Shown here in pieces: positions 42,079 to 57,500 of a DNA stretch of 64,000 nt (its first letter is position 1; each line of letters begins with the position of its first letter). The stretch comes from an uncultured Holophagales bacterium (GTDB taxonomy: Bacteria > Acidobacteriota > Thermoanaerobaculia > Multivoradales > UBA5704). The position numbers and the translations under genes were made by a program. The notes under the pieces were generated by a model. That model searched no databases. It saw nothing but the letters and a program-made list of their open reading frames with translations, and was not told where the DNA came from. The stretch spans positions 672,001 through 736,000 of the forward strand of contig CAWJGT010000003.1 in assembly GCA_963842525.1 (NCBI GenBank), written 5' to 3'.

Positions 42079-45000
42079 GCCATCCTCCCGCCGCCGAGCT
42101 CGATTCCCTGGAGAATGCCATCGCCGTCCTCGGCCTGGCCGGGCGCTTCCCGCAGGCTCGCACCCTCGACGAGCTCTGGGAGAACCTGCGCAACGGCGTC
42201 GAGTCGATCCGCGTCCTGACCGAACCGGAGCTGCTCGCCGCGGGCGTCCTCGCCTCGACCCTGCGCGACCCGAGCTACGTCCGCGCCGCGGGGGTGGTCG
42301 AGGGGATCGACCTCTTCGACGCTCCCTTCTTCGGCTTCAGCGCCCGCGAGGCGGCGTTCCTCGACCCACAGCAACGGCTGTTCCTGGAGTGCGCCTGGGA
42401 GGCCCTGGAGTCGGCCGGCTACGACGCGCTGCGCATCCCGGGCCCGGTGGGCGTCTACGGCGGCACCAGCGCGAACAGCTATTACCTCTTCTACCTCTTT
42501 TCGCGCGCCGACATGCTCAACTCGCCGTCGGCCGGCCAGAGCTTCCTGGGCGGGGACAAGGACTTCCTCTGCACCCGGACCAGCTACAAGCTGGGCCTGC
42601 GGGGTCCCAGTCTCGGCGTCCAGACCGCCTGCTCGACCTCGCTCGTCGCGGTCCACCTGGCCTGCCAGAGCCTGCTCAATGGCGAGTGCGACATGGCGAT
42701 CGCGGGCGGCGCCTCGCTCAGGGTCCCGCAGACGACCGGCTATTTCTGGCAGCCCGGCGGCATCCTGGCGGCGGACGGCCATTGCCGCGCCTTCGACGCC
42801 GAGGCCGGCGGCTCGGTCCCGGGCAGCGGCGTAGGCGTTGTGGTCCTGAAGCGCCTGGAGGACGCTCTCGCCGACGGCGACACGGTGCGGGCGGTGATCC
42901 GCGGCTCGGCGATCAACAACGACGGAGCCCTGCGGGTCGGCTTCACCGCACCCAGTGTCGAAGGGCAGGCCGCTGTCATCGCCGAGGCCCTAGCTCTCGC
43001 CCGGGTCGACCCGGCGACCATCGGCTACGTCGAGGCCCACGGCAGCGGCACTCCCTTGGGCGATCCGATCGAGATGGCTGCGCTCACCCGCGCCTTCGAG
43101 AGCGACCGCACGCGCCGTGGCGCCTGCGCCGTGGGCTCGATCAAGACCAACCTCGGCCACCTGGACGCGGCGGCAGGCATCACCGGCCTGATCAAGGCCG
43201 TTCTGGCGCTGGAGCATCGCGAGATCCCACCCAGCCTGCATTTCCGGACGCCGAACCCGAACGCCGGCTTCGCGGACAGCCCGTTCTACGTCAACACCCA
43301 GCTCCAGGAGTGGACGACGGACGGCGCTCCGCGGCGGGCGGGCGTCAGCTCGTTCGGCATGGGCGGGACGAACGCGCACGTGGTCCTGGAAGAGGCCCCG
43401 GAGCCCGAGCCTTCAGGGGTGTCCTCCGGGGCGCGCCCCTGGCAGCTCCTCCTCCTCTCGGCGGTGACCCGCACGGCCCTGGAGGCCGCCACGGACAACC
43501 TGACCGCGCACCTGGAGAAGCACTCCGGGCAGCCTTTCGCGGATGTCGCGTACACGCTCCAGGCCGGCCGCCGCGTCTTCGCCTATCGGCGGGCCCTTGT
43601 CTGTAGGGACGGAGAGGATACGCGACGGGCCCTGGCGGAGCGCGATCCCGCGCGGCTGCTGGAGGGCTTCGAGGAGCGGACGGACCGCACCGTCGCCTTC
43701 CTTCTCCCTGGCCTTGGGGATCAGTACGACGGCATGGCGCGCGGCCTCTACGAGGGCGAGCCCGTCTTCCGCGACGAGGTGGACCGATGTTGCGAGATCC
43801 TGCGGCCGATCCTGGGGATGGATCTGCGGGAGGTGCTGTTCGCGGGAGGGGAGGAGGGAGACGGGGACGGTCCCGACCTCCGTGCCCTCCTCGGCCGGAG
43901 GAAGGAAACCGGCCGCTCCGACCGCACCGCGATCGCTCAGCCGGCCCTGTTCGTCGTCGAGGTCGCCCTGGCGCGGCTCCTCCGGGAGTGGGGGATCGAG
44001 CCGCGGGCTCTCCTCGGCTACAGCCTGGGCGAGTACGTGGCCGCCCACCTCGCGGGTGTGATGACCCTGGAAGACGCCCTGCGGGTCGTGGCACTTCGCG
44101 CGCGGCTGATCGAGGAGCTGCCCGGCCGGCGCCATGCTGGCCGTGCCGCTGTCCGAGGCCGAGGCCGCCGGTCTGCTCGGCGAGGAGCTGTCCATCGCCG
44201 CGGTGAACGGCCCGGAGCTGTGCGTGGTGGCCGGTCCGGTCGACGCGGTGGCGACGCTGGAGCGGCAGCTCGGGGAGCGCGGCTTGTCCGTACGGCGCCT
44301 CGCGACCTCGCACGCCTTCCACTCGAAGATGATGACACCGGTGGCCGCTGCCTTCGAGCGGGTGCTGCGGGAGGTCGACCTCCGCGCCCCTGAGATGCCC
44401 TACATCTCGAATGTGACCGGCACCTGGATCACGCCGGCCGAGGCCACCGATCCGGCGTACTGGGTGCGCCACCTTCTGGAGCCGGTGCGCTTCGGCGCCG
44501 GGCTGGCGGAGCTGGGGCGCGAGGCCGGGCGGGTGCTGCTGGAAGTCGGCCCCGGCCAGAGCCTGAGCAGCCTGTCTCTCCAGAGGGTGTTTCGAGATCC
44601 TCCCCCTGGGAGCGCCGACGCTCCCAGGGAGGAGGGACGGACCGCTCTTCCGACCCTGCGGCCGTCCTGGGAGCGGCGGCCGGACCAAGCCTTCCTCTTG
44701 GGCACCCTCGGCCGCCTCTGGCTCGCGGGTGTTTCGGTCGACTGGGCCGGCTTCGCGAAGGAGGAACGCCGGCGGCGCGTTCCGCTGCCGACCTATCCCT
44801 TCGAGCGGAAACGGTACTGGATTGAGAGTCCGGTCTCCGAGGTATCCGAGGCCGTGGGACCTCACCCCCGGCCCCTCTCCCATCTCCCTTCCACCCGCCC
44901 GCCGGGAGAGGGGGGAGCGCTGACCGACAGCTCCCAGGCTTTCCAAGGTCTTTCTCCCCTCTCCCGGGGAGGGGAAGGGTGGGAGATGGGAGAGGGGCCG

Positions 45001-54500: not shown

Positions 54501-57500
54501 TCCACATCTGCCATCGCGGCGACCGGCGGCGCGCGGTGCCGATCGGCCGGCCGGTGTCCAATGTCACCGCCCGCGTGCTGGACCGCTGGGGTGGATCGGT
54601 CCCGGTGGGCGTCCCCGGGGAGCTCCATCTGGGCGGCGTGCAGGTGGGCCGCGGCTACCTGGGGCGTCCTGCCCTGACCGCGGAGCGGTTCATCCCCGAC
54701 CCCTGGGGAGAGCCGGGCGCCCGCCTCTACCGGACCGGCGACCTGGCGCGCCGGCTGCCGGATGGGGAGCTGGACCACCTGGGGCGGATCGACCACCAGG
54801 TGAAAATTCGCGGGGTCCGCATCGAGCTGGGCGAGATCGAGGCGGCCCTCTCCTCCCTGCCCTGGATCCGGGAGGCTGCCGTCCTGGTCCGGGGAGAGCC
54901 GGGCGAGCCGCGGCTGGTGGCCTATGTGGTTGTCGTGCCTCTTCCCCCCTCTCCCGGGAGGCAGGGGGGGCGGTTGGGAGAGGGGGGCCAGGGGGGTGAG
55001 GGGCTCCGCCCCACTCCGACCGTGGGCGGCCTGCGGCAGGAGCTGGCCGGCACGCTGCCCGACCCCATGCTCCCCCTGGCCCTGGTGGTGCTGGACGCCC
55101 TGCCCCTGACCGCCAACGGCAAGTTGGACCGCAAGGCGCTGGCGCGCCTCGATGCGCCCGGGGAAGCGGACGCCGCCGGCCGGATCGCGCCGCGGACCTC
55201 CACCGAGGAGCTGCTGGCCTCCCTCTGGGTCGACCTCCTGGGCCTCTCCGGCGCGGACCGGGTGAGCGCGCGGGACGGGTTCTTCGATCTCGGCGGGCAT
55301 TCGCTGCTCGCCACCCGGCTCGTCGCGCGGGTCCGCGACCGGTTGCGGGTCGAGCTGCCCCTCCAGGCAGTGTTCGAGACCCCGGCCCTCCAGGACCTGG
55401 CGGCGCGGATCGACCGGGAGCTCCGGTCCGGGGCTCCGGAGGCACCGCCTCTCGTGCCGGCCGGCCCGCCCGCCGCACCCGGGGAAGTGCGGCACGCCCC
55501 CCTCTCCTTCGCCCAGCGCCGGCTCTGGTTCCTCGCCCAGCTCGATCCCGGGTCCGCCGCCTACAACCTGCCCATGGCGCTGCGCCTCGCGGGTCCATTG
55601 GATGTCAACGCGCTCGCGGCCGGCCTGAACGGCATCGTCCGGCGGCACGAGGCCCTGCGCACGACCTTCCCGGCGGAGAAGGGAGAGCCCCGGCAGGTGA
55701 TCCGCGGCGACGGGTGGCTCCCTCTCCCGCGGGTCGATCTGTCCGGCCTGGACAGGCAGGCACGGGAGAGCGAGGCGGCCCGGCTCGCCCGGAAAGAGGC
55801 GACCCGGTTCTTCAATCTTGCCCACGGGCCGCTGCTGCGCCTCCTCCTGCTCCGACTTGCGCCCGAGGAGCACGCGCTCGTCGCCGTCCTTCACCACATC
55901 GTCGGCGACGGCTGGTCCATGGGCATCCTGGTACAGGAGCTGGGGGAGCTCTACGCCGCGTTCCGGGAGGGGAGGCCGCCCGCGTTGCCGCCTCTGCCGG
56001 TCCAGTATGCGGACTTCGCGGTCTGGCAGAACGGATGGCTGCGCGGCGAGGCGCTGGAAACCCAGCTCCGGTGGTGGCGCGACGAGCTGGCCGGCGCGCC
56101 GCAGGTGCTCGAGCTGCCGGTGGACCGGCCGCGTCCGCCCCTTCAGACCTCGCGCGGAGCGGAGCTCCCCTTCGCGCTGCCGGACCGCCTCGCCGACGCC
56201 CTCCGCACCCTCGGCCTGCGTGAGGGCGCGACGCTCTTCATGACCCTGCTGGCCGGCTTCCAGGCCTTGCTCGGCCGTTGCTCGGGGCAGCTCGACCTGC
56301 TCGTGGGCTCACCCGTGGCAAACCGGACGCGGACCGAGACCGAGCCTCTGATCGGCTTCTTCGTGAACACCCTGGTGCTGCGCGGCCGGCTGCGAGGCGA
56401 CCCCACCTTCCGCGAGCTGCTCGGCCGCGTGCGCGTCGACCGCTCTGGGGGCCTGGGCCCACCAGGATCTCCCGTTCGAGCGCCTTGTCGAGGAGCTGGA
56501 GGTCGAGCGCTCCCGAGGCCGCAATCCGCTCTTCCAGGTGATGTTCGTGCTCCAGAACGCCCCGACCGGACCGCTGCGCCTTCCGGGTCTGACCCTGGAG
56601 CCCATTGCCCTGACGACGGCCACGGCGAAGAGCGACCTTCTCCTGTCCTTCTCGGAGAGGGTGTCCCGTGGCGCGCAGAGCCCTCACCCCCTGGCCCCCT
56701 CTCCCGTGCGTCCCCCGGCCCGCCACCCCGAACGGGGGAGGGGGAAGGGGAGAGGGCTGGGTGGCGGCGCCCCTCTCCCGCTCGGGGTGGGGGATGGTGG
56801 ACGCGCGGGGGAGGGGTCGGGGGAGGGGGCTTACGGCGGCCTGCAGGGGATCTGGGAGTACGCCACCGACCTCTTCGACGCCACGACAATTGCACGCATC
56901 ACCGGCTGGCTCGCGAGGCTCCTGGAGGGCGCCGTCGACGATCCTGGAGCATCCATCGCCGAGCTGCCGCTGCTGTCCGAGGAAGAGAGCCGGCAGGTGC
57001 TGGAGACCTGGAACCGCACGGCGGTGGGCTTCCCTCGCGCGTCGATCCACGACCTCTTCGCCGAGCAGGCGGCGCACCATCCAAACGAGCGTGGCGGTGG
57101 TCTGCGGCGGCGAAAGGCTTGACCTACGCCGAGCTGAACGACCGATCGGCCCGCCTCGCCCGCCGCCTGCGCGCCCTGGGCGTGGGCCTCGAAGACCGCG
57201 TGGGCCTCTGGGCCGAGCGCTCGGTGGATCTCATCGCCGCCCTCCTAGGCATCCTGCGGGCCGGCGCCGCTTACCTTCCTCTCGACCCGTCCCATCCCCC
57301 CGAGCGCCTGGCCTGGATGCTCGAAGATGGTGGTGCGCGAATCCTGCTAACCGACCGTCGATTTTCGGACCTCGCCGCGAACGTCGACGTCACGTCCCCC
57401 CTCTCCCGGTTGGGGGAGGGGCGATGGGAGAGGGGGACAGGGGGTGAGGTTCAAGTGCTTTACCTCGACGATCTCGCCGCCAGCGACGATCTACCCTGCG

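Follow-up and report, generated by a model that had tools for sequence, protein, structure and literature searches.

Introduction

Palindromic repeats inserted in frame into bacterial genes have been described in Rickettsia, where, according to the cited parts of the literature (PMC10969869, PMC3733652), multi-copy elements of ~100-150 bp lie in unrelated genes, insert-free orthologues exist and the inserts sit in fold-compatible places. The repeats reported here share these traits. In contrast to the reduced genome of the intracellular Rickettsia, their host is a free-living, Acidobacteriota-like soil bacterium with a genome of 9.95 Mb (67.5% G+C) rich in NRPS/PKS genes; it carries 126 genic loci as opposed to the 44 cited for R. 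conorii in the same sources, and about half of its genic copies lie in megasynthases, with a hotspot before the A3 motif. The likeness is one of layout.

REP/REPIN sequences with their RAYT transposases represent a second described system. One of the two repeat families found here (family 2) resembles them in being a short palindrome, located mostly outside called genes, that occurs as inverted dimers and next to RAYT genes, whereas family 1 is longer and composite and shows no RAYT/Y1 association within 1.5 kb at the 15 of 20 Y1 matches checked. Miniature elements known from in-frame fusions (ERIC, Coxiella QMITE and Anabaena MITEs) are, in the relevant parts of a review (PMC10969869), likewise short and non-autonomous, possess terminal inverted repeats and allow read-through when they lie within a host ORF; the words 'myxo', 'nonribosomal' and 'polyketide' are absent from its text. 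Unlike for such elements, no target-site duplication, parent insertion sequence or mobilising enzyme was found for family 1. Finally, natural domains are reported, in the cited sections of PMC11355689 and PMC8097286, to interrupt adenylation (A) domains at a8-a9 and a2-a3. The same two loops receive the repeats described here, including the window sites 57390 (A2-A3) and 54941 (A8-A9), but the known inserts are functional enzyme domains, whereas in the present genome low-complexity, repeat-coded peptide of 18-80 residues is inserted.

A sequence-only reading of a 64,000-nucleotide stretch of this genome (the window) had reported eight palindromic elements inside an NRPS/PKS cluster. We put at about three in four the probability that these elements belong to families of selfish, hairpin-forming repeats scattered genome-wide, copies of which would land at random and be filtered by selection.

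Repeat families in the window and in the genome

Hairpin repeats of the described sequence were present at all eight sites (Table 1). The proposed division into at least two families holds for six sites carrying family 1 and for the family-2 dimer at 50262-50360, while the small palindrome at 44592-44636 has arms that resemble the outer family-2 arm. Family 1 (arms CCTCACCCCC..CCCTCTCCC / GGGAGAGGG..GGGGGTGAGG) is MITE/REP-like, with terminal inverted arms of 22-24 nt that each pair with an internal complement, and occurs in full (~140-205 bp), internally deleted (~67 bp) and solo-end (~55 bp) forms. Mapped by nhmmer over the whole genome, it proved to be a multi-copy family of 815 units in 543 loci. 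Family 2 (GGGACCGCGGGCGT) comprises 51 loci, 43 of them outside called genes, and is a REP/REPIN family whose copies flank genes of RAYT (REP-associated tyrosine transposase): two genes match the RAYT profile NF047646 (82.6 and 85.6 bits; cut-off 80), one of which has REP copies on either side.

Within the window, CCCTCTCCC was represented by 23 copies as compared with 2.63 expected, a count reached by none of 100 shuffles. The exact GGGACCGCGGGCGT has two occurrences, at 50269(+) and 50341(-), which form an inverted pair. Allowing up to 2 mismatches raises the count to 8 (4.06 expected), a number attained by 6 of 100 shuffles, so that within the window the exact pair alone is conspicuous. No such element had been noticed in the other window genes, and a profile search of the whole window agrees: the nine family-1 units that it detects all fall in the interval 44860-57449, the other genes having none. 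Six of nine pieces of the window elements folded at -35 to -128 kcal/mol (z-scores -5.3 to -11.1), and three half-elements (52151, 54941 and 57390) folded no better than shuffles.

Table 1. Genes of the window cluster and the repeat elements that they contain (energies in kcal/mol; flank identity given for the two sides of an element)
Feature	Position	Strand	Architecture or site	Search and folding results	Orthologues
Stand-alone condensation-domain gene, cluster head	40543..42078	+	Without element	Pfam Condensation 2.1e-80	575 aa in G002
Hybrid PKS/NRPS gene	41586..48573	+	KS-AT-T-C-A-T; two ORFs, frame change near 44120	Pfam; AT profile divided 2-130 / 129-268 between the two ORFs	Intact, 2239 aa (G002) and 2175 aa (G003); additional C in 'GAGCTGCCCGG' vs 'GAGCTG-CCGG' in G003 and G018
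NRPS gene	48570..58933	+	C-A-T-C-A-T-C-A-T; frame changes 54287-54335, ~56437, ~57100	Pfam; tblastn with G002 orthologue switches frame 2>1>2>1, codon statistics agree	Intact, 3478 aa (G002); +1 base near 56437 vs 3/3
Small palindrome CCCCCTGGGAGCG..CGCTCCCAGGGAGG	44592..44636	+	C-terminal part of AT domain	-35.3, z = -5.25; 6 BLAST hits, self included	Missing from 4/4; alignment gaps multiples of 3
Full family-1 element with two hairpin units at its ends	44857..45012	+	AT-to-carrier linker, after YPFERKRYW	Units 1.2e-09 each; -128.4, z = -11.1	Missing from 4/4; flanks 72.6/75.0% (G002)
Family-1 full element with extra flanks	48960..49185	+	Core 48996-49143; condensation domain, N-terminal lobe	Units 49003-49056(-), 49089-49142(+); 43 hits of 130 nt or more in the genome, self included; -110, z = -8.6	Missing from 3/3; flanks of 48996 75.0/76.0% (G002)
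Family-2 REP inverted dimer, REPIN-like	50262..50360	+	C-to-A linker	-82.5, z = -10.4	96-nt insertion vs 3/3; flanks 78.0/73.0% (G001)
Two family-1 hairpins	52083..52215	+	T-to-C linker	Hairpin in G003: nhmmer 1.3e-09	First (52083-52150) this genome only; second at same spot in G003; remnant in G002 (alignment)
Family-1 solo unit	54941..55005	+	A domain, A8-A9, after LVAYVV	Unit 7.1e-07	Missing from G002
Degenerate family-1 full element	56679..56830	+	Condensation domain, C-terminal part; frame-2-coded stretch	Unit E = 0.001; -121.2, z = -5.3; Condensation profile 3-317 before, 407-455 after	Missing from G002
Family-1 solo right-end unit	57390..57450	+	A domain, A2-A3	Unit 1.4e-11; AF2 pLDDT <50 for residues 99-114	Missing from G002; aligns to gap in solved LgrA (6mfy)

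Distribution among genes and insertion sites

Family-1 loci lie predominantly outside called genes (417 of 543; 192 per Mb), a density that is inflated, with genic counts being lower bounds, because our home-made gene calls cover 77.7% of the genome. The genic loci were distributed between NRPS/PKS genes (62; 53.8 per Mb) and other genes (64; 9.7 per Mb), and the suggested enrichment in megasynthases was borne out: these hold 62 of 126 genic loci, although they make up 14.8% of genic bases (binomial p = 9.5e-20). The earlier picture of selfish repeats colonising megasynthases is thereby upheld as regards enrichment and the kept frame, but not as regards specificity, since the 417 loci outside called genes indicate that megasynthases are not specifically targeted, and 64 further loci were assigned to genes of other kinds. 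When 20 of these non-megasynthase hosts were tested, 19 proved to carry Pfam families at E <= 1e-8; among them are a DnaE-like polymerase (insert within the PHP domain), AcrB, an ABC/C39 transporter and Lhr and MrfA-type helicases. The hosts outside the megasynthases further comprise helicases of the RecQ type and a PD-(D/E)XK nuclease. The polymerase, the helicases and the nuclease echo the bias of intragenic REPs to replication and repair genes that is reported in the cited part of Di Nocera et al. 2013 (PMC3733652), the text of which, its supplementary host table apart, does not contain the term 'nonribosomal peptide'.

A domains hold 32 of the 62 megasynthase loci. Insertions were found within 30 aa upstream of TSG[ST]TG (A3) in 21 of 62 cases, as opposed to 2.0% of positions expected, and after L.AYVV (A8-A9) in 3 of 62 (0.6% expected); one A domain (C23, aa 1261-1311 and 1614-1635) has elements in both loops. 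Within the A2-A3 loop the hotspot insertions crowd towards A3, with 0 to ~16 residues separating them from the downstream AY of that motif, and are not dispersed along the ~40-60 residues of the loop. Such clustering is unpredicted by tolerance alone and may reflect a target preference. If the elements or their transposase preferred a DNA sequence or structure recurrent in megasynthases, chiefly upstream of A3-motif DNA, then enrichment and hotspot would record where copies land rather than which survive. We regard this as possible, though rather doubtful. Several subfamilies (solo, ~130 bp and ~163 bp) occur at the A3 spot, which points to repeated independent hits, and full elements display a weak complementary flank preference (GGGC-element-GCCC). 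However, the varying distance between the element end and the AY argues against a fixed nucleotide target, no conserved flank motif beyond the extended arms was found among 224 aligned copies, and the contexts of the loci, most of them outside called genes, are diverse. Moreover, the tolerance of the A2-A3 loop for whole-domain insertions, as far as the cited sections describe it, would account for the hotspot without targeting.

Comparison with related genomes

Alignment to insertion-free homologues revealed that seven of the eight window sites are empty in colinear orthologous clusters of up to four related genomes (67-78% nucleotide identity). At the eighth, the T-C linker, one of two hairpins is common to G003; hence, an in-frame copy has outlived a speciation. 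In the relative G001 the frame is open across an entire 2.1-kb locus with an element copy (C224), within a 4549-aa open frame, and this NRPS frame appears to read through the copy. Both sides of the window elements retain colinear orthology at similar identity (Table 1), and thus the module shuffling for which the elements had been proposed as recombination points has left no sign here.

This colinearity, without a breakpoint at any window element, also bears on an adaptive role, in which the elements would be kept because they offer the host either portable homology through which A-domain cores or modules could be swapped, or stable mRNA hairpins, candidates for pausing ribosomes or setting mRNA processing between domains. 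The stable stems (22-30 bp, folding at -61 to -128 kcal/mol) and the conservation of one hairpin between species fit such a role, as do the A2-A3 and A8-A9 sites, both occupied in the C23 domain, which bracket a region exchanged by natural recombination (an A3-to-A9 exchange is described for McyB in the cited section of PMC8097286). It is nevertheless improbable: 32 of 62 loci lie within A domains rather than at domain borders, the same elements turn up in unrelated genes and for the most part lie outside any called gene, and relatives with empty sites have intact ORFs, which indicates that the elements are dispensable.

By eye, at least seven locus pairs (C18/C19, C20/C30 and within C6) share the element and both flanks, with near-identical flanking peptide, so the 62 megasynthase loci are not all independent, clusters or modules having been duplicated. 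That a few original insertions were multiplied as modules or clusters were duplicated and paralogous domains underwent gene conversion, in place of many independent insertions, seems improbable, because most loci have unrelated flanks and differ in subfamily and offset, each of the seven window insertions whose orthologous sites are empty is confined to this genome, and after removal of 7 loci ~55 remain, still a roughly fivefold higher density than in other genes.

Preservation of the reading frame

As the sequence-only reading had stated, the local frame is kept across all eight window sites, according to codon statistics, tblastn frames and Pfam on the frame-2 piece. The same holds genome-wide: at 54 of 62 NRPS/PKS loci the two flanks share one coding frame, the other eight, with a weak flank, are uninformative, and none changes frame. 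Arm-to-arm lengths modulo 3 were distributed 60/81/57 outside called genes and 21/36/7 inside (chi-square p = 0.011). As element lengths outside called genes are not skewed towards 3n, the preservation is probably due to selection for frame. Among 90 sense-oriented genic units with exact GGTGAGG, none has the TGA of the G-rich arm in frame, a result expected by construction, since these units sit inside called ORFs.

Away from the elements, the window cluster contains four frame changes (Table 1), which the sequence-only reading had overlooked. They may represent decay or assembly error, and if they are real, the enzyme to which the window copies belong may have ceased to be made in working form. 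Overlaps between ORFs that resemble frameshifts were likewise more abundant in megasynthase genes (31.2 per Mb) than in other genes (3.3 per Mb), which fits relaxed selection on megasynthases that could add to the enrichment. An untranslated pseudogene cluster had earlier been named as speaking against selfish colonisation, and these frame changes, set against intact orthologues, lend that objection partial weight, but element density is equal in megasynthase genes beside a frameshift-like overlap (55.3 per Mb) and in the remainder (53.0 per Mb). That elements accumulate since many NRPS/PKS clusters, including that of the window, are dying pseudogenes unprotected by selection is very improbable. 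None of the 54 informative insertions changes the frame, as opposed to a neutral expectation of about two in three, and lengths outside called genes are free of 3n bias; element-bearing open frames reach 5669 aa and a DnaE-like gene is among the hosts; and genic copies are not more diverged than others (median unit bit scores 42.9, 42.3 and 41.9 across categories; p = 0.32 and 0.27).

Dispersed repeats are classic misjoin sites and the closest named relatives are metagenome-assembled genomes, but that the genic repeats are chimeric joins is hardly credible, as in relatives with assemblies of their own the two flanks of each window element match one and the same orthologous gene, in order, one element lies at the same site in G003, and the G001 frame also seems to read through a copy.

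Proposed mechanism and significance

Under selfish insertion filtered by selection, copies would land irrespective of genes, and purifying selection would then purge intragenic ones unless the added length were a multiple of three, the sole stop-containing frame of the G-rich arm (GG-TGA-GG) were avoided, and the insertion site were a linker or surface loop. Surviving copies would, judging from the open frames, be read through in host proteins, with the C-rich arm coding for Pro/Ser/Leu-rich and the G-rich arm for Gly/Glu/Arg-rich peptide, both resembling natural flexible linkers. Megasynthases would keep many copies because they are long domain chains joined by flexible linkers, and also because their A2-A3 and A8-A9 loops accept even whole inserted domains. 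The in-frame repeats represent a natural map of the sites at which the giant, antibiotic-type synthetases of this bacterium tolerate added peptide loops.

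Palindromic repeats within the NRPS/PKS cluster

The source genome (G000) comprises 9.95 Mb in 34 contigs with 67.5% G+C. Our own crude gene calls counted 195 NRPS/PKS-type genes (hereafter megasynthases) in it, with a combined length of 1.15 Mb (11.6%). As delimited by Pfam, the NRPS/PKS cluster of the window spans 40.5-58.9 kb and consists of three genes (Table), whose orthologues in the relative G002 are intact ORFs of 575, 2239 and 3478 aa. At the head of the cluster the stand-alone condensation domain is directly followed by a KS domain (42114 onward), without a carrier domain between them. 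G002 and another relative, G003, share this layout, so the opening is an ancestral arrangement and did not arise by decay.

The sequence-only reading had placed palindromic elements of at least two families at eight sites in these genes, and direct inspection found sequence matching that description at every one. The motif CCCTCTCCC occurred 23 times in the window against 2.63 expected, a count reached by none of 100 shuffles, while GGGACCGCGGGCGT was present exactly twice, forming an inverted pair. RNA folding of nine element pieces gave -35 to -128 kcal/mol for six of them (z-scores -5.3 to -11.1); the other three, half-elements, folded no better than shuffles.

The elements belong mainly to family 1, a MITE/REP-like hairpin repeat bounded by terminal inverted repeats of 22-24 nt, CCTCACCCCC(NN)CCCCTCTCCC and GGGAGAGGGG(NN)GGGGGTGAGG, each of which pairs with an internal complement. 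Copies were located by blastn-short and then with an nhmmer profile made from the end unit, which yielded 815 units at 543 loci of G000, including nine units in the window, all within 44860-57449. Full elements (n = 257) are mostly 120-294 bp long, about 140-205 bp in the examples inspected, and shorter forms comprise internally deleted copies (~67 bp) and solo ends (~55 bp). Family 1 was abundant in each of five further genomes searched from the same genus and present in two of three other genera of the family, but a DNA search did not find it in three of four other families of the order; copy counts in relatives, where the best 40 candidates per genome were scored, are to be read as "at least". 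Family 2, a REP/REPIN-type palindrome, is represented in the window by an inverted dimer (50262-50360) and in G000 by 51 loci, 41 of them with two or more BLAST pieces. The arms of the small palindrome at 44592-44636, which has few genomic copies, resemble the outer family-2 arm. The insertion in the N-lobe of the condensation domain measures ~226 nt and exceeds the 148-nt family-1 core; its flanks, 48960-48995 and 49144-49185 (CTCTGAAAGGGTTTCTGGAAA ... TTTTCCAAAGACCCTCTGAGG), form an imperfect inverted pair likewise missing from the orthologues, so that it may be a nested or composite element. A search of the elements against Rfam at E <= 0.1 returned 17 matches, every one below the gathering score and to a eukaryotic miRNA-precursor family; these are look-alikes of the kind that generic long G+C hairpins produce.

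Comparison with the colinear orthologous clusters of G001, G002, G003 and G018 (67-78% nucleotide identity) revealed that seven of the eight window insertions are missing from every orthologue covering the site. The exception is the T-C linker, where the hairpin found in G003 at the same place indicates that one in-frame copy is older than the split of these species.

Table. Coordinates of the cluster genes, the inserted elements and related loci. Bare coordinates count from the window start; C9 is another contig of G000. KS, AT, T, C and A are PKS/NRPS domains; A2, A3, A8 and A9 are adenylation-domain motifs.
Feature	Coordinates	Place or content	State in orthologues	Basis
Stand-alone condensation gene	40543-42078			Pfam
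Hybrid PKS/NRPS gene	41586-48573	KS-AT-T-C-A-T		Pfam
Synthetase gene	48570-58933	C-A-T-C-A-T-C-A-T		Pfam
Element	44592	C-terminal part of AT domain	empty in 4 of 4	alignment
Element	44857	AT-T linker	empty in 4 of 4	alignment
Element	48960-49185	loop in N-lobe of C domain	empty in 3 of 3	alignment
Element	50262	C-A linker, 96-nt insertion	empty in 3 of 3	alignment
Element	52083-52215	T-C linker	one of two hairpins common to G003; remnant in G002	
Element	54941	A8-A9 loop	empty in G002	alignment
Element	56679	C-terminal part of C domain	empty in G002	alignment
Element	57390	A2-A3 loop	empty in G002	alignment
RAYT-like ORF	62353-63276 (-)	307 aa		NCBIfam, Pfam
DnaE-like gene (L020)	G000:C9:93877-97410	DNA polymerase III alpha, 1177 aa		
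RAYT gene	G000:C9:1310304-1310960	218 aa		NCBIfam
Region around RAYT gene (L042)	G000:C9:1309400-1311600			

Genome-wide distribution

Genes were called with a home-made codon-usage caller (6804 genes), which under-calls, because its calls span only 77.7% of the genome. Outside called genes 417 family-1 loci were distributed over 2.17 Mb (192 per Mb); 62 loci lay in the 1.15 Mb of megasynthase genes (53.8 per Mb; 40 of the 195 genes hit) and 64 in the 6.63 Mb of other genes (9.7 per Mb). Hence, the concentration in NRPS/PKS ORFs that the sequence-only reading had anticipated from the window extends to the genome: megasynthases hold 62 of the 126 genic loci with 14.8% of the genic bases (binomial p = 9.5e-20). 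Megasynthase gene ends are touched by just six additional loci. Family 2 repeats this pattern on a small scale, with 43 of its 51 loci outside called genes, six in megasynthases and two in other genes.

The non-megasynthase hosts are largely recognizable genes, as 19 of 20 tested carried a Pfam family at E <= 1e-8, among them a DnaE-like polymerase, Lhr, MrfA-type and RecQ-type helicases, a PD-(D/E)XK nuclease, AcrB and an ABC/C39 exporter; one of the 20 was itself NRPS-like. In the DnaE-like gene an in-frame family-1 solo unit occupies residues 174-192, which fall within the PHP domain (Pfam 91-288). Some megasynthase pairs (contigs C18/C19, contigs C20/C30 and within C6) share a near-identical flanking peptide together with the same insertion. 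Such pairs have the appearance of duplications of clusters or modules, or else of strain variants co-assembled into one genome (contamination estimate 3.36%). At least seven locus pairs look, by eye, inherited by duplication, and the number of independent events is therefore below 62.

Insertion hotspot in adenylation domains

Within the megasynthases, 32 of the 62 family-1 loci fall inside adenylation domains. As many as 21 of the 62 lie in the 30 residues that precede the A3 motif TSG[ST]TG, a stretch representing 2.0% of positions, and three occupy the A8-A9 loop just after L.AYVV (0.6% expected). Several subfamilies are present at the A3 site, with offsets from 0 to about 16 residues. The A2-A3 insert of the window, the one site aligned in this way, stands opposite a gap in the solved structure of LgrA (6mfy). 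In an AF2 model built on an 11-sequence alignment its residues 99-114 had pLDDT < 50 (whole-model mean 68.8); the model is of moderate quality, with residues 290-400 poor, and nothing beyond the low confidence at the insert was drawn from it. According to PMC11355689 and PMC8097286, A domains are naturally interrupted by auxiliary domains at a8-a9 and a2-a3. Insertions cluster at the A3-proximal end of the A2-A3 loop, which leaves room for a target preference.

Reading frame of the inserted copies

The statement of the sequence-only reading that no element breaks the local frame held at all eight window sites. On this, codon statistics, tblastn searches with intact orthologous proteins and a Pfam search of the piece coded in frame 2 concur. 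Across the genome, the best coding frame agreed between the two 300-bp flanks at 54 of the 62 megasynthase loci and changed at none; the remaining eight had a weak, uninformative flank, with the best frame still the same in seven of them. A further 38 family-1 loci outside megasynthases were robustly in frame and open, and in a relative (contig C224 of G001) an NRPS frame is open through a family-1 copy across the 2.1 kb retrieved, which form part of an open frame of 4549 aa. The modulo-3 distribution of arm-to-arm lengths showed no bias outside called genes (60/81/57) and a skew within them (21/36/7; p = 0.011). The absence of a frame shift at all 54 informative loci, against unbiased lengths outside called genes, is a clean signature of selection on frame.

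Compared with the intact orthologues, the window PKS/NRPS genes shift frame at four other places (~44120, 54287-54335, ~56437 and ~57100), either by real mutations or by consensus/assembly errors. The first results from an extra C in a run of C inside the AT domain and the third from one extra base relative to all three orthologues, while the indels near 54300 and 57100 could not be placed to the base in pairwise DNA alignments, the sequences being too diverged. The changes at ~56437 and ~57100 offset each other, so that a 1672-aa ORF stays open with ~660 nt of a condensation domain out of frame. Among public sequencing runs, a search listed one soil-metagenome DNA run containing 6% of the query words and no RNA run. 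Megasynthases contained 36 frameshift-like overlaps of >=100 bp between adjacent same-strand coding ORFs, or 31.2 per Mb, compared with 22 (3.3 per Mb) in other genes; intact ORFs of up to 10,328 aa nevertheless exist in G000.

We read the in-frame elements as selfish repeats that land widely and then pass through a selective filter. Genic survivors would be those copies that add 3n bases, are placed in linkers or loops and stay out of the only frame containing a stop; they would be read through into a Pro/Gly-rich peptide. Given the excess of frameshift signatures in megasynthase genes, relaxed selection may also contribute to their load of copies. The evidence speaks against a simple accumulation of elements in dead genes, given that their density is alike in megasynthases with (55.3 per Mb) and without (53.0 per Mb) frameshift signatures and their divergence from the consensus is equal across locus categories.

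Candidate mobilising enzymes

Two genes of G000 score 82.6 and 85.6 bits for a REP-associated tyrosine transposase (RAYT; NCBIfam NF047646, cut-off 80). The RAYT gene listed in the Table has family-2 REP copies on both sides and the second has one such copy beside it, which identifies family 2 as a REP/REPIN with its RAYT. A third, partial family-2 copy lies just downstream of the stop codon of the former gene, giving the surrounding region a REPtron-like layout. The window itself contains an ORF with a weak RAYT match (NF047646 47.6 bits, cut-off 80; Pfam Y1_Tnp 26.3 bits), and no copy of either family was present within 1.5 kb of it.

For family 1, no unit was found within 1.5 kb of any of the 15 Y1_Tnp matches checked among the 20 detected. 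Direct flank repeats of 2-9 bp, as would be left by target-site duplication, were not in excess except at 4 bp (19 against 3), and this exception arises from a palindromic extension of the arms (GGGC..GCCC). Nine pairs of family-1 arms lie 0.5-5 kb apart; the genes enclosed by the three examined as candidate parent elements (~4 kb) are ordinary or unassigned and include no member of a transposase family.

Relation to known elements and significance

The behaviour of the G000 elements matches that of Rickettsia palindromic elements (RPE) and of the intragenic REPs described in PMC10969869 and PMC3733652. Like RPE, family 1 is a multi-copy palindromic element with stable predicted hairpins, its copies can lie within ORFs without breaking the frame or adding a stop, and orthologues without the insert exist. 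Family 2 resembles REP/REPIN-RAYT systems in being short, palindromic, mainly extragenic, often arranged as inverted dimers and RAYT-flanking; family 1 differs from these systems, having no RAYT flank at the Y1_Tnp matches checked. With MITEs family 1 shares terminal inverted repeats and a size within 50-300 bp, but it departs from them in lacking target-site duplication and a parent IS between the distant arm pairs examined. Intragenic REPs in several species also favour replication and repair genes, according to the same two sources.

Relative to the literature accessible to us, novelty lies in the lineage, the concentration within megasynthases, the hotspot upstream of A3 and the scale, with 126 genic loci against the 44 in-frame copies cited for R. 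conorii. Our literature search, which covered main texts, found no published description of NRPS-specific in-frame repeats.

The suggestion that the elements serve as recombination points found no support, since on either side of each window element the orthology stays colinear and of similar identity, giving no sign of recombination breakpoints there. We hold it improbable that the elements, instead of being tolerated passengers, drive megasynthase evolution. In such a role, by preferring A2-A3 and A8-A9 loops and inter-domain linkers, they would seed every cluster with identical, portable 55-200 bp stretches of homology bracketing the specificity-conferring A core and could promote exchange of A cores or modules between clusters, and their very stable RNA stems could act as punctuation in the translation or mRNA processing of these giant genes.

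Provided that the inserts are translated, G000 supplies at least 62 natural experiments on the positions at which PKS/NRPS enzymes tolerate 18-80 additional residues. These positions comprise AT-T, T-C, C-A and KS-AT linkers, two condensation-domain loops and, most prominently, the A2-A3 and A8-A9 loops of adenylation domains. In NRPS engineering, positions of this kind are sought for tags, linkers and inserted domains. Annotators and users of BGC-mining tools should be aware that, in genomes of this kind, an apparent Pro/Gly-rich "linker" or a domain hit split in two can turn out to be an inserted repeat. Furthermore, the findings carry the phenomenon of RPE and intragenic REPs over to a free-living host of the soil Acidobacteriota type with a large genome, and extend it also in number, with more in-frame copies than the count cited for R. 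conorii.
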